Assembly: GCF_030013205.1 (NCBI RefSeq)
Contig: NZ_CP122648.1
DNA: 64,000 bases
From: Escherichia coli
GTDB lineage: Bacteria > Pseudomonadota > Gammaproteobacteria > Enterobacterales > Enterobacteriaceae
Strand: one strand, 5' to 3'
Each line of letters opens with the position of its first letter. The first letter of the stretch is position 1. The notes under the pieces were generated by a model. It had not been told where the DNA came from. It saw only the letters and a program-made list of their open reading frames with translations, and searched no databases. This document shows positions 7,967 to 63,752 of the stretch, piece after piece. The position numbers and the translations under genes are program-made.

Positions 7967-8518
7967 ATGCAAACGAAAAAAAATGAAATTTGGGTGGGTA
8001 TCTTTTTATTAGCAGCACTACTGGCGGCGCTGTTTGTTTGCCTGAAGGCGGCGAACGTGACGTCCATACGTACTGAACCGACCTACACGCTTTATGCGAC
8101 GTTCGATAACATTGGCGGCCTGAAAGCGCGCTCTCCGGTCAGCATTGGTGGTGTTGTTGTGGGCCGGGTGGCGGATATTACGCTGGACCCGAAAACCTAT
8201 CTGCCGCGCGTAACGCTGGAAATTGAACAACGTTATAACCACATTCCTGATACCAGTTCGCTGAGCATTCGTACTTCCGGCCTGCTGGGGGAACAATATC
8301 TGGCATTAAACGTCGGTTTTGAAGACCCGGAACTGGGGACTGCTATCCTGAAGGATGGCGATACAATTCAGGACACCAAGTCTGCGATGGTGCTGGAAGA
8401 TCTTATTGGTCAGTTCCTTTACGGTAGTAAAGGCGATGACAATAAGAATAGTGGCGATGCGCCAGCTGCTGCGCCAGGTAATAATGAAACCACTGAACCT
8501 GTGGGTACAACGAAATAA
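7967..8518 (+). CDS. mlaD: MCE-domain phospholipid-binding protein
   Basis: ORF 7952..8518 trimmed to MQTKKNEIW start (183 aa). Confidence 0.9.
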   Translation: MQTKKNEIWVGIFLLAALLAALFVCLKAANVTSIRTEPTYTLYATFDNIGGLKARSPVSIGGVVVGRVADITLDPKTYLPRVTLEIEQRYNHIPDTSSLSIRTSGLLGEQYLALNVGFEDPELGTAILKDGDTIQDTKSAMVLEDLIGQFLYGSKGDDNKNSGDAPAAAPGNNETTEPVGTTK

Positions 8519-9933: not shown

Positions 9934-11193
<1,260 letters not shown>

Positions 11194-57978: not shown

Positions 57979-58144
57979 TGTGTAATCCTCACCATAAAGT
58001 TGAATAATATAATTTTTTTAAATATATTATTGTTGCGATATTGTACTGATGTATTTATTAAGGTTTAGTTATCTCCTTTACCATTAAGGCACTCCCCGAT
58101 ATTAATCGGGAAGTACATTGGGATAAATCATAAAAAACTAATGA

Positions 58145-59017
<873 letters not shown>

Positions 59018-60172
59018 TTATGCCTGCCACGGATGAATGATTACGCCTTGCACCACGCGGTTAACGGTGCCGCTGGCTGATGGGGTATCCGGCGTATTGC
59101 CCATGTGCAGCGACTGCATAAGTGCAAACGTCTGGGCGTACATCAGGAAGCAAAATGCCTGCTCAACGTCGATAAAGTGACGGGACGGCGGCAGGATAAT
59201 ATGTGGACCGGCAGCAACGATGTCTGTGCTTTCCGCGGCGATGGCGATTACGCGCATTGCCTGGTTATCGCGGCGAAGTTCAGCCAGTAGATCAAGATCA
59301 TACTGACGGGTGTAAGGGTGGCTGGAGACAAATACCACCACCAGCGTTTCGTTATCGACCAGCGATTTCGGGCCATGACGGAATCCGGTCGGGGAATCAT
59401 AAAAGGCCGCCAGTTTACCCGCCGTCAGTTCCAGTACTTTCAGCGCCGACTCGCGTGCTGCGCCCTGTAAGCCACCGCTGCCGAGATAAACGATCCGTTT
59501 CCACGGTGCGTAACCAAACACACCTTCGCTGAAATCGCCCAGTGAGGTCAGGATCGCCTGGCAACGATCCGCCACGTCGCGGAAGCTCTGGCTGTTGATC
59601 GTCTCAGGTGCGAAAACCGCGAGGCAGCTGGCCATCATGGTGGTAATGCTGCTGGTCATCGCAAAGCCGCGATCGTGCGTTTCTGCGGGCATCAGTAGGG
59701 CAAACGCGTTGTCGCTGTTGATCGCGTTTTGGTAAAGAGCGCCCGCTTCGTTGCAGGTGATCGGCAGGTGATAGCACTCGGGTACAAATTGATTTGCCAG
59801 TTCCACGGCGGCGACGCTTTCCGGGCTGTTGCCGGATCGACCGAAGGAGATCAACAGCAGTGGATGAGTTGGATTCAGGTAGTCCATCGGATTGGTGACC
59901 AGATCGGTGGTCGGTACGGCGCTGAAGTTTTTACCGGTATGGCTGGCGAGCCACGGCGCGATAATGTCACCGATAAATGCCGAGGTTCCGGCTCCGGTCA
60001 GGATTACCCGCAGATTCTCTTTGCGCAGTAACGGTTCAAGGAAGTTATTGAGCGCGGAACGTAGTGCGTCGATGTTGGTGAGTGAACGGATCCATGCGCG
60101 AGGCTGATGGCGGATCTCTTCTTCAGTCCATGTACCGGTTGCGGCAGCAGCAGGGGGGTAATTTTCTGGCAT
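59018..60172 (-). CDS. agaS: SIS-domain putative galactosamine-6-phosphate deaminase
   Basis: 384 aa ORF recognised as AgaS. Confidence 0.85.
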   Translation of the reverse strand: MPENYPPAAAATGTWTEEEIRHQPRAWIRSLTNIDALRSALNNFLEPLLRKENLRVILTGAGTSAFIGDIIAPWLASHTGKNFSAVPTTDLVTNPMDYLNPTHPLLLISFGRSGNSPESVAAVELANQFVPECYHLPITCNEAGALYQNAINSDNAFALLMPAETHDRGFAMTSSITTMMASCLAVFAPETINSQSFRDVADRCQAILTSLGDFSEGVFGYAPWKRIVYLGSGGLQGAARESALKVLELTAGKLAAFYDSPTGFRHGPKSLVDNETLVVVFVSSHPYTRQYDLDLLAELRRDNQAMRVIAIAAESTDIVAAGPHIILPPSRHFIDVEQAFCFLMYAQTFALMQSLHMGNTPDTPSASGTVNRVVQGVIIHPWQA

Positions 60173-60393
60173 AACTCAATCCTTAGTCTGATGAACTTGA
60201 CGTCGGGCGTTGTCGCTTTCGCTTACCTTTCGTTTCATTTCACTTGGTGATGTCTTTCGTTGATTAAAATCTATAGAAAAGAAACTGAAAGTTCAATGGA
60301 GAAAAAAGAAATAAAACGAAATTTGTGATCGTTGAAAGAAAAGACAAGGGAAGATTAAAGGATTGCGTGATAACGTCGCTATGTTCACCGATT

Positions 60394-60446
60394 GCCGGAT
60401 GCGGCGTACCGTAGGTCGGATCAGACGCGTTAGCGTCGCATCCGAC
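60394..60446. repeat. REP elements in the agaS-agaA intergenic region
   Basis: GCCGGATGCGGCGTA and GTAGGTCGGATCAGACGCGTTAGCGTCGCATCCGAC. Confidence 0.65.
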
Positions 60447-60522
60447 ACCGCTGCACAGATCAAAAAGAAAGAAAAAGAAAGGCCTTACGGGGGAAGTGAA
60501 GGCCCAATAATGGAGCAAACCA

Positions 60523-61656
60523 TCAAAACGAAGCTAATTGACCCTGAATCCAGATTTGTTGCACATGTAGCCCGCTATCCAGCGCAACGACGCTGGCGCG
60601 TTTGCCCGGTTTAAGCGATCCCAGAACACCATCAACACCCAGCATTCGCGCCGGATGCAGCGACGCCATATGGATGGCTTCCGCAGGCGTTACGCCCGTT
60701 AACTCGACCATGTTGCGCACTGCTGCATCGACAGATAGCGTACTGCCCGCCAGCCCACCGGACGCGGTACGGACAACGCCACCGTGCATCTGCACTTCTT
60801 CGCCACATAACGTATAGCGACCATCCGGCATCCCAGCTGCCTGCATCGCGTCGGTGATCAGTACGATTCTCTCTTTCGCACAGCAACAACACAGCGACAT
60901 CGCCGCCGGATGCACATGATGACCATCGGCTATCAGTTCCAGCCAGGCGCGCTTGTCCGTTAATCCCGCGCCAACCATTCCCGGTTCGCGGTGATGTAAA
61001 CCTGTCATCCCGTTATAGCAATGCACCAGGCCGTCGGCACCAGCATCAAATGCGGCGCGGGTTTGTTGCCAGGTCGCCGCGCTATGCCCCAGCATCACCC
61101 TTACGTTTTGCTGTTTAAGATGGCGGATGGCCTGCAATGCCCCTTCTTTTTCCGGTGCCAGCGCTACCACGCGTAAGGTGTGCTGAGAAACGGCAATCAA
61201 TTGATCCAGCTCGGCAATTTCCAGCTCGCGAAACAGCTCCGGTGGATGCGCGCCTTTATTCTGCGGCGTGAAGTACGGTCCTTCGAGATAACTCCCCAGC
61301 ACTTGCGCACCAGGTCCGCCGCGTTGGCAACGTTGAGCAATACGTTTCAGCGCCGCATGAATGGTATTAAGCGGCGCGGTTACGGTGGTCGGTAACCAAC
61401 TGCCGACACCTTCGCATGCCTTGTGCATTGCCAGCTTGTCGAGTACATCCGGCGCGTCATCCATTACATCAACGCCCGCACCACCGTGTACATGGGTGTC
61501 GATGTAAGCGGGGCAGAGCAGTTCCGCATCGCGTTCAGTCACGCCCACTGGAATCGGTTCGATTGCTGCGATGACACCGTCAGCAATACGCAACTGATGG
61601 TCATCGAGCCATCCCTCTTCAGTTAGCAGCCTTCTGGCGCGCAGAACGGGTGTCAT
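60523..61656 (-). CDS. agaA: N-acetylgalactosamine-6-phosphate deacetylase, full length
   Basis: ORF 60523..61677 trimmed to MTPVLRARRLL (377 aa); NagA-like metal-binding residues. Confidence 0.85.
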   Translation of the reverse strand: MTPVLRARRLLTEEGWLDDHQLRIADGVIAAIEPIPVGVTERDAELLCPAYIDTHVHGGAGVDVMDDAPDVLDKLAMHKACEGVGSWLPTTVTAPLNTIHAALKRIAQRCQRGGPGAQVLGSYLEGPYFTPQNKGAHPPELFRELEIAELDQLIAVSQHTLRVVALAPEKEGALQAIRHLKQQNVRVMLGHSAATWQQTRAAFDAGADGLVHCYNGMTGLHHREPGMVGAGLTDKRAWLELIADGHHVHPAAMSLCCCCAKERIVLITDAMQAAGMPDGRYTLCGEEVQMHGGVVRTASGGLAGSTLSVDAAVRNMVELTGVTPAEAIHMASLHPARMLGVDGVLGSLKPGKRASVVALDSGLHVQQIWIQGQLASF

Positions 61657-62087
61657 ATTCCTTCCTCGACCGGACATTCTTCATGGCAGCGGCCTAACTC
61701 GTCCACCAGACTGGTCAGCCCACGGTGTCCACACTCCAGCGCCTGCACACGGAATTCTTCACCGATTAACCCTTCGCGCTCCAGCACCATCTCCAGTAGC
61801 AGTTGTAAATTGGTGCCTGTAATCACTTCACAGCCCGGTTTTTGCATCGCCAGCGTTGAAGCTACGCGAAACGGCGTGCCGCCCAGCAAATCCGTCAGAA
61901 AAACAATGCCGTCTTCACAATCCAGTTGGGCGATGGCCTCTTCAAGCTGCGATGTAAGCAGCGCGGTGCTTGAGGTTTCCGGAAAATCGATGGCGATAAA
62001 CTGCGATTGCTCGCCGAGGATTTGCTTCATTGCTTTTTCCATGCCACTGGCAAACCCGCCATGCCCTGTCAAAATAATACTTAACAT
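61653..62087 (-). CDS. agaF: PTS N-acetylgalactosamine-specific IIA component
   Basis: 144 aa mannose-family IIA ORF. Confidence 0.85.
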   Translation of the reverse strand: MLSIILTGHGGFASGMEKAMKQILGEQSQFIAIDFPETSSTALLTSQLEEAIAQLDCEDGIVFLTDLLGGTPFRVASTLAMQKPGCEVITGTNLQLLLEMVLEREGLIGEEFRVQALECGHRGLTSLVDELGRCHEECPVEEGI

Positions 62088-62104
62088 CTAATACCTCATT
62101 GTAT

Positions 62105-62989
62105 TTAAAGGAAATGGCAGAATTTACCGACGATGCCGAGAACCACGGTCACTGCAATCAGGCGCAGCGGACTCCAGCCGCGGCGTACCAGCCAGAACAT
62201 GGTCAGGGTGTAGACCAGCGGTAAGAAGGCAGGCATCAGTTTGTCGATAACATCAGCCTGTAACTTAACCACTGCGTCGCCCGCTGTGATTTCCAGCGTG
62301 GTGCTTAAACGAACATAGGTTGCCACCAGCGCGCCGATTACCGTCATCCCAACGATAGACGCAGCATGGCCGACTTTTTTGGTATTCGCTTTAATGAGTG
62401 GAATCGCCGCCACGCCCATGCGGTAAGCATAATGCGCCAGACCAAAACGCAGCCCCAGGTGTACCACGTTGAACAGCACAATAAAGACGACTGCGCCAAG
62501 AATAGAGCCTTGTAGCGCGAGGCTTGCGCCTATCCCACCACAAATCGGCAGTAGCGTCAGCCAGAACATTGCATCGCCAATCCCGCCAAGTGGCGCACCG
62601 ACGGCAATTTTGGTGCTCTGAATACTGTTAACGTCCTGCTTAGAACGCTCCATCGCAAGGATAATGCCGATAACAAACGTCACCAGAAACGGATGGGTAT
62701 TGAAGAAACCCATATGCCCCTTCATGGCGCGCGCCAGGTCGCGTTTATTAGTGTGGATCTTTTTCAGAGCAGGCAGCAGACCGTACAACCAGCTAGAAGC
62801 CTGCATACGTTCGTAGTTAAAAGACGCTTGTAACAGCATGGAACGCCAGGCGACGCGGTTGATATCTTTTTTCGTCAGCTCTGCGCCAATGCTCTGATCT
62901 TCATACACGTTTTCATTGACGCCTGTCAGCAGTGTTTCTTCGTTTTCACTGACGTTCGGCAGGGTGGTTTGATTAGATGCCATCTTCAA
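62105..62989 (-). CDS. agaE: PTS N-acetylgalactosamine-specific IID component
   Basis: 294 aa ORF paralogous to agaD; exact start uncertain. Confidence 0.8.
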   Translation of the reverse strand: MKMASNQTTLPNVSENEETLLTGVNENVYEDQSIGAELTKKDINRVAWRSMLLQASFNYERMQASSWLYGLLPALKKIHTNKRDLARAMKGHMGFFNTHPFLVTFVIGIILAMERSKQDVNSIQSTKIAVGAPLGGIGDAMFWLTLLPICGGIGASLALQGSILGAVVFIVLFNVVHLGLRFGLAHYAYRMGVAAIPLIKANTKKVGHAASIVGMTVIGALVATYVRLSTTLEITAGDAVVKLQADVIDKLMPAFLPLVYTLTMFWLVRRGWSPLRLIAVTVVLGIVGKFCHFL

Positions 62990-63752
62990 ATTCCTCTTTC
63001 TGTGCCGCAGGTTGAGTCGGTTCAGGAGATTTACGCAGCAGGTCGATCAGCGCCATCGCCAGCGCGGCGGCAGCAATAGCCAGCACCGGTAACTTGAGCC
63101 AGGCTGCGGCAACAAAGCCCAGGATGAAGTAGGGGATGTAGACGTTTTTCATCATGATTTTCAGCAGCACGGCAAAACCGATTGCTGGCATGATGCCGCC
63201 CGCGACGCCGAGGCCGTCGATTAATCGTTGCGGCAGGACATCAATGATGGTTTTGGCATGTTCTGCGCCGAAGTAGATAGGCAGGAAAGCGCAGAGAAAA
63301 TAGAAAGTGCCGAGTGCCAGCAGTGCCAGATAGTTCACGCGTTCAATGCCGCGTGTATCGGCGTTCTCCGCCATCCGGTCGCAGCGAGACATCACGCCAG
63401 ACATCACCGAGAACAGGAAGGTAATCCCCATCTGTACTGCGACAGCGAAAGGTACGGCGACACCGACCGCGACATCGGGTTTCACGCCAGTAGTAATGGC
63501 AAACGCCGTGCCGACGATAGTACCGATAATCACGTTAGGCGGTTGTGCGCCTGCCAGCGGGGCCAGCCCCATCCACACCAGTTCCAGCGTACCGCCGGTT
63601 AAAATACCGGTATGCAGATCGCCAAGTACCAGTCCGACCAACGGGCCGAGGACCACCGGGCGGTGCATATGGGTTAGGCCGTTAAACATATCCAGGCCAG
63701 CGATAAAGGCGATAATGCCCAACGCGAATGCCTGCAACAGACTGATTTCCAT
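62973..63752 (-). CDS. agaW: PTS N-acetylgalactosamine-specific IIC component, full length
   Basis: 259 aa hydrophobic ORF paralogous to agaC. Confidence 0.85.
   Translation of the reverse strand: MEISLLQAFALGIIAFIAGLDMFNGLTHMHRPVVLGPLVGLVLGDLHTGILTGGTLELVWMGLAPLAGAQPPNVIIGTIVGTAFAITTGVKPDVAVGVAVPFAVAVQMGITFLFSVMSGVMSRCDRMAENADTRGIERVNYLALLALGTFYFLCAFLPIYFGAEHAKTIIDVLPQRLIDGLGVAGGIMPAIGFAVLLKIMMKNVYIPYFILGFVAAAWLKLPVLAIAAAALAMALIDLLRKSPEPTQPAAQKEEFEDGI

Follow-up and report, generated by a model that had tools for sequence, protein, structure and literature searches.

A map of the spacer between agaA and agaS, the known boundary of two N-acetylgalactosamine operons in Escherichia coli

In Escherichia coli, the genes for N-acetylgalactosamine catabolism form two operons, kbaZ-agaVWEFA and agaS-kbaY-agaBCDI, which are separated by a 349-bp gap in strain BL21 (PMC10101011). 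According to PMC3668189, the agaR, kbaZ and agaS promoters are targets of AgaR binding and, citing Ray & Larson 2004, GalNAc induces single-copy Pz-lacZ and Ps-lacZ fusions 5- and 20-fold. Tandem repeats in these intergenic regions are bound by AgaR (PMC5018945). The existence of Ps, its binding by AgaR and its induction are thus results from the literature, as is the two-operon layout with AgaR-repressed Pz and Ps promoters. Since this layout is published, the two-unit model put forward in an earlier, sequence-only reading of the DNA described here (a stretch of 64,000 nucleotides, the window) is established knowledge. That reading placed a transcription boundary in the gap between agaA and agaS, and this part holds, by the literature as well as by the terminator-like hairpin and the promoter with its operators; the upstream unit, however, starts at kbaZ and not at agaV, as had been proposed. 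The spacer is an ordinary feature, the known boundary of the two operons, and the positions of its elements, their conservation and the accompanying statistics are established in the present analysis.

The closest described system is the K-12 Ps promoter with its AgaR operators (Ray & Larson 2004, as cited in PMC3668189), which is the same locus and has both consensus operators. The promoter-operator half of the spacer (about 60173-60350 in the window) is near-identical to that of K-12, with 2 substitutions in the last ~175 nt. The window strain differs from K-12 in carrying the other REP allele and in having intact agaW, agaE, agaF and agaA, which are pseudogenes or deleted in K-12. Within window positions 60523-63752, agaW, agaE and agaF are intact and agaA is full-length; in K-12 MG1655, agaW and agaA are pseudogenes.

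Multi-operator repression by DeoR-family proteins (DeoR at deoO1/O2/OE, GlpR at tandem operators) resembles the aga spacer in that a DeoR-family repressor is paired with phased repeats that flank and cover the promoter. DeoR-type repressors cooperate by DNA looping. At the aga spacer, in contrast to the DeoR and GlpR systems, looping and the oligomeric state of AgaR are putative and the distal site is a weak candidate. The middle of the spacer compares with a different class of element. REPs are extragenic, imperfect palindromes with a conserved head and tail, repeated around the genome. Like other REP/BIME elements of Enterobacteriaceae, which are a known source of intergenic polymorphism, the spacer REP is an extragenic, multi-copy, imperfect palindrome of ~35 nt whose head is of the GCCGGATGCG type and whose tail is CTAC. 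A difference is that the window allele holds 1.5 REPs, whereas the K-12 allele has the full inverted pair. With the REP mRNA stabilisers of the malE-malF type it shares a location on the 3′ side of an operon's final gene, but here a conserved terminator-like hairpin precedes the REP, which is lineage-specific and dispensable. REP-like sequence is also shared with the REP325-derived nucleoid RNA naRNA4 (Rfam RF02564). The spacer is nevertheless not a member of this family: an Rfam search of it returned only a sub-threshold naRNA4 match, at 24.8 bits compared with a gathering score of 59.5.

The aga/gam (N-acetylgalactosamine/galactosamine) cluster lies on the minus strand at the end of the window. 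Strain ETEC4079 matches a 501-bp query over the spacer at 100% identity, and most of this query is found in 5307 of 5426 complete E. coli genomes. In transcription order, the annotation of ETEC4079 reads agaR (divergent), kbaZ-agaV-agaW-agaE-agaF-agaA, the gap, and agaS-kbaY-agaB-agaC-agaD-agaI. The window ends within agaV, with kbaZ and agaR beyond its end; agaR is present in the identical ETEC4079 record, and the spacer is thus located upstream of an aga catabolic gene in an AgaR-encoding cluster. All records listed give agaA the RefSeq/PGAP name nagA. Exactly 350 non-coding bases, 60173 to 60522, separate the agaA stop codon from the agaS ATG, and these are the stretch analysed here; ORF and codon coordinates match the non-coding gap described in the sequence-only reading to the base. 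The gap had also been called unusually long for a packed cluster, and it is the longest there: the remaining junctions measure -11 to 38 bp, except for the 166 bp between kbaY and agaB. The elements of the spacer and its borders, in transcription order, are:

60523-61677, minus strand: agaA open reading frame, from the ORF list.
60523-60525, minus strand: agaA stop codon TGA, the last codon of the kbaZ-agaVWEFA operon, from the ORF list and the sequence.
60480-60505, minus strand: terminator-like hairpin GGGCCUU.CA[7-nt loop]UGAAGGCCU, beginning 18 nt past the agaA stop; from the predicted fold and conservation.
60462-60479, minus strand: T-rich tract TTCTTTTTCTTTCTTTTT, the tail of the putative terminator, from the sequence; read on the plus strand, it is the second AG-rich run.
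60461-60484, minus strand: candidate weak distal AgaR operator (O3), overlapping the terminator tail; a hypothesis, with 3 mismatches to the consensus.
About 60411-60448, minus strand: complete REP GTCGGATGCGACGCTAACGCGTCTGATCCGACCTAC, with palindrome arms at 60415-60428 and 60433-60446; from the inverted repeat, the REP head, the fold and the naRNA4 match.
60393-60407, minus strand: half REP ACGCCGCATCCGGCA, the remnant of the second, inverted REP of a BIME; from the inverted repeat, with a head at 60394-60406.
60352-60410, minus strand: block of ~58 nt in which the two structural alleles of E. coli diverge, from alignments.
60324-60339, plus strand: candidate CRP half-site TGTGATCGTTGAAAGA with the GATCACA motif (60330-60324); a conserved block centred ~70.5 nt upstream of the predicted start.
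60302-60325, minus strand: AgaR operator O2 CAAATTTCGTTTTATTTCTTTTTT, at about -64 to -41 from the predicted start; 1 mismatch, 29.5 bits.
60268-60296, minus strand: Ps core, with putative -35 hexamer TTGAAC (60296-60291), a 17-nt spacer and putative -10 hexamer TAGATT (60273-60268), in a conserved block.
60224-60247, plus strand: AgaR operator O1 TACCTTTCGTTTCATTTCACTTGG, inverted relative to O2, at about +15 to +38; 0 mismatches, 31.4 bits, the best site in the window.
60170-60185, minus strand: Shine-Dalgarno sequence TAAGGA (60185-60180) and agaS ATG (60172-60170); from the sequence and A/G-invariant alignment columns.
59018-60172, minus strand: agaS open reading frame, from the ORF list.

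The same arrangement is found well beyond E. coli. An AgaS-based scan with one genome per species yielded 71 Enterobacterales loci, from Escherichia, Citrobacter, Enterobacter, Klebsiella, Raoultella, Kluyvera, Salmonella diarizonae, Yersinia, Buttiauxella, Cedecea, Kosakonia and others. In nearly all of them, agaA (or agaF where agaA is missing) is followed by a long spacer and then by agaS. The median length of the spacer across genera is 301 nt, with most between 240 and 350, indicating that the long gap is a conserved design rather than an oddity. Both AgaR boxes hold their distance to the agaS ATG over about 20 genera. An alignment of 29 species contains five conserved islands: GATCACA, O2, a promoter block cATTGAaCTTTCGaTTTCTTTTCTATAGATTTT, O1 and the Shine-Dalgarno sequence. 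Loci L011-L031 and related loci outside Escherichia also have a conserved 5′-UTR block, GCCAGCGTCTGATGTGGAATTCACA, about 15-45 nt before agaS, which contains the near-palindrome TGTGGAATTCACA; the Escherichia sequence at this place differs.

Immediately after agaA, we observe a hairpin followed by a tract with 15 T in 18 nt. The hairpin (60480-60505) has a predicted free energy of -10.2 kcal/mol, and equally good folds were obtained in 3 of 200 shuffles. A hairpin with a T-tract at most 130 nt past the upstream stop codon is present in 66 of the 70 Enterobacterales loci, compared with 39 of 350 shuffled sequences (11%); in the regions after kbaY, which served as a specificity control, the combination occurs in 2 of 70 loci. 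The stem sequences vary by genus yet stay complementary (GGCCTTACG/CGTAAGGCC, GGTTTGTGG/CCACAAACC and GTCTGTCGC/GCGACAGAC are examples). Over the outer six pairs of the stem, 93.8% of positions are paired, a percentage inflated by the choice of hairpins through a folding scan; four of the six pairs show compensatory changes, and none of 500 shuffles is equal. Controls in which the stem was slid reach at most 65% paired. The alignment used consists of hairpin-anchored sequences, among which the species with agaF upstream have differing offsets. The tail, CCTTTCTTTTCCTTTC, is nearly invariant across genera. In Escherichia the hairpin is weaker than elsewhere, at -10 compared with -13 to -20 kcal/mol in other genera. 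A consensus promoter/terminator scanner found no terminator in the spacer, a result that is uninformative because the hairpin is bulged and has a 7-nt loop. The GC-rich hairpin with its directly following U-rich tract fits an intrinsic (Rho-independent) terminator, and the 3′ end of the upstream transcript is predicted to lie here. In most genera among L011-L060, a conserved CCCTTTCATTGTG motif occupies the first ~15 nt past the agaA stop, before the hairpin; it is also found in species that lost agaA and is not present in Escherichia.

The other end of the spacer contains the agaS promoter and two strong AgaR sites. We used the operator consensus WRMMTTTCRTTTYRTTTYNYTTKK, reportedly that of Ray & Larson 2004. 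It matches O1 without mismatch and O2 with one, where 0.14 matches are expected per 64 kb, and its specificity rests on these match statistics. The consensus also matches the kbaZ/agaR intergenic region of the identical strain ETEC4079 three times, and so behaves as a real AgaR motif should. O1 and O2 are 78 bp apart and form a 14-nt, 93% inverted repeat with its centre at the -10 region. Relative to the agaS ATG, O1 lies at -75 to -79 (about -76) in nearly all genera and O2 at about -153 in most. Between them lies the promoter block cATTGAaCTTTCGaTTTCTTTTCTATAGATTTT, the most conserved sequence across the 29 species. The putative Ps hexamers TTGAAC and TAGATT are weak, matching at 8 of 12 positions with 17-nt spacing, and transcription of agaS is predicted to start near 60261. 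A simple promoter scanner run on the spacer did not find Ps, which is uninformative since hexamers with 8 of 12 matches fall below its cut-off. Upstream of O2, the GATCACA site pairs a perfect TGTGA half-site with a poor second one; its conservation and its location at a class I position point to a possible CRP half-site. A pattern search for CRP sites had no discriminating power, with 183 matches against 222 expected.

On the coding strand of the spacer, TTTC occurs 11 times, compared with 3.1 ± 1.6 in shuffled sequences (0 of 2000 shuffles reach 11), and the 17-nt spacer between the Ps hexamers is itself composed of TTTC repeats. Downstream of about 60258, GAAA occurs five times on the same strand, where 0.87 are expected. 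The AG-rich, low-complexity stretch described in the sequence-only reading is real on the plus strand, but its content is the ordered TTTC/GAAA sequence of the terminator T-tract and the AgaR operator repeats. One further AgaR-like 24-mer was noted in the window at 7969-7992 (minus strand), with 3 mismatches and 14.6 bits. This 24-mer, most likely a chance match, overlaps the start codon region of mlaD and is translated there as MQTKKNEIW.

Based on these observations, the spacer is very probably the junction of two AgaR-controlled operons, consisting of a terminator, a REP/BIME that the junction does not need, and the AgaR-repressed Ps. In the mechanism we propose, most transcripts from the kbaZ promoter would be stopped directly after agaA by the GC-rich hairpin and U-rich tract, in the manner of an intrinsic terminator. 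The REP/BIME would have been gained in Escherichia at a permissive site between terminator and promoter, leaving the operon boundary independent of it. The final ~160 bp would constitute Ps, a sigma-70 promoter with O2 just upstream of the -35 element and O1, in inverted orientation, in the early transcribed region. AgaR, a DeoR-family repressor, would fill the tandem repeats and block initiation by occlusion, probably with bridging between O1 and O2. Metabolites of GalNAc or GalN would free AgaR and allow transcription of agaS-kbaY-agaBCDI.

An extension of this mechanism concerns the terminator tail, which may double as a distal AgaR operator (O3) that cooperates with O2 and O1 via DNA looping. 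We regard this as possible but doubtful. With an AgaR PWM built from 74 distinct O1/O2 sites, O3 scores 15.6 bits, the third-best match in 64 kb, although this is half the score of O1 and O2 (about 30 bits). It also ranks first among 94 terminator-like tails, with 6.8 bits for the runner-up and a median of -19.9 bits for the 93 others. Its three TTTC units have the 5-nt phasing of the AgaR operator core, but where the core has a highly informative purine, after the first TTTC, the tail has a T. Across genera the tail consensus, CCTTTCTTTTCCTTTCG, is more conserved than the stem, with nearly invariant C positions, and some lineages have near-perfect operator cores (TTTCATTTCATTTC in L070, TTTCGTTTTCTTTC in L076); a U-rich tail is, however, needed by the terminator in any case. 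In 85% of species the tail beats composition-matched shuffles, a figure that overstates independence, given the phylogenetic relatedness of the species. Between the two REP alleles of E. coli the length of the spacer is held within 2 bp, but among genera the distance from the tail to O2 ranges from ~45 to 160 bp. That 60461-60484 is both the RNA termination signal of the upstream operon and the DNA anchor for looping of the repressor onto Ps is, overall, unlikely. If such a dual role were true, a constraint on spacing would account for the two REP alleles being equally long.

Between the terminator-like hairpin and the promoter lies the REP block. The REP head GCCGGATGCGRCG is found with 0 mismatches at 60394-60406 and with 1 mismatch at 60434-60446, in agreement with the REP palindromes that had been noted in the gap: one complete REP, Z2-like among the REP classes, and one half REP. 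Other REP heads in the window are at 10823 and 32943/32963. Because there are REP copies elsewhere, the median number of places matching the spacer is 4 per E. coli genome. A BIME comprises two complete inverted REPs; in the window allele the second is truncated, leaving its 3′ half and a degenerate REP-like piece. The allele of K-12, O157, E1 and ESM2.2 has a linker and a complete second inverted REP, and is a true BIME. The two alleles differ almost solely in the 58-nt block 60352-60410, where their sequences are unrelated, while the flanks are conserved; both keep the spacer at 348-350 bp.

Spacer identity within E. coli is bimodal, with 2814 records at 95% or above and 2618 at 80-95% (2548 of them at 80-90%). 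There are two structural alleles of the spacer, each in about half of E. coli genomes. This split is taken from the identity distribution; allele-specific megablast with 65-68-nt queries found 1515 and 1387 genomes, an undercount caused by the 28-nt word requirement. E. whittamii, Escherichia sp. E1V33 and MOD1-EC7003 also carry the window-type allele. Two other Escherichia loci depart from the common layout. In E. coli strain E69, a GTDB species representative (L009), agaA is missing and agaF is followed by a 420-bp gap that retains the REP block and both operators. In Escherichia albertii (L071, 1900-2500), unrelated sequence takes the place of the agaVWEFA side, of the terminator and of the REP and runs to about 180 nt before agaS; what remains of the promoter and O2 looks degenerate.

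The sequence-only reading had assigned the REPs the role of stabilising the 3′ end of the upstream transcript. REPs are said, in work by Newbury et al. in 1987, to stabilise mRNA upstream of them, and the hairpins here could in principle be the functional 3′ end of the kbaZ-agaVWEFA mRNA, shielding it from 3′-5′ exonucleases as at malE-malF. A complete REP, within a region of predicted folding energy -32 kcal/mol, begins 75 nt past the agaA stop, and the Escherichia terminator hairpin is comparatively weak, which makes read-through into the REP plausible. We nevertheless consider this role quite improbable. Downstream of agaA, the conserved hairpin and U-tract come before the REP, and terminated transcripts would not include the REP. 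Among the 70 spacers compared, REP-head matches are found in 5 of 5 from Escherichia and in 0 of 65 from other genera, where the operon boundary is kept. About half of E. coli genomes have an intact second REP and the other half a truncated one, with conserved flanks in both. As a main mechanism, REP-mediated 3′ stabilisation is thus not supported. Given its location downstream of the terminator, its absence from the 65 spacers outside Escherichia and its rearrangement within the species, the REP is most plausibly an insertion that is tolerated between terminator and promoter, rather than a boundary or a 3′-stabilising element. BIMEs can cause Rho-dependent attenuation, and the REP may have a minor effect on read-through transcripts, either by stabilisation or by such attenuation.

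The two remaining alternatives are very weak. That the gap is tolerated junk within one polycistronic unit, with neither an internal start nor a stop, is highly improbable: the Escherichia hairpin is modest and some read-through from Pz into agaS is likely, but Ps and its repression by AgaR are published, the Ps-lacZ data cited in PMC3668189 contradict a single unit, and promoter, operators and terminator are kept across genera. We give hardly any credence to a small protein gene or sRNA concealed in the gap: an 84-codon TTG ORF (60264-60518, minus strand) exists in the window strain and Rfam gives the weak naRNA4 match, but the ORF, whose product is a run of F/L/S residues from pyrimidine repeats, has no counterpart in other genera and is ruled out as a gene because stop codons or frameshifts break it in K-12, O157 and three further E. 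coli alleles, and the naRNA4 match, at 24.8 bits against 59.5, is merely REP similarity.

The reading of the spacer as the junction of two AgaR-controlled operons adds mostly to annotation, as the two-operon organisation and the control of agaS by AgaR have been known for two decades. What is added is a precise map of the spacer, a covarying terminator-like hairpin conserved across Enterobacterales, the description of the REP as a polymorphic, Escherichia-specific passenger, and the idea of a third AgaR site. The map can serve the design of GalNAc-inducible expression tools and comparisons of aga expression between E. coli lineages with the two REP alleles. The second-longest gap of the cluster, the 166 bp between kbaY and agaB (57979-58144), is AT-rich and has neither a REP nor a T-tract. 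A hairpin, CTTCCCGAT/ATCGGGGAG, lies within it, and an internal promoter or a processing site may be located there.
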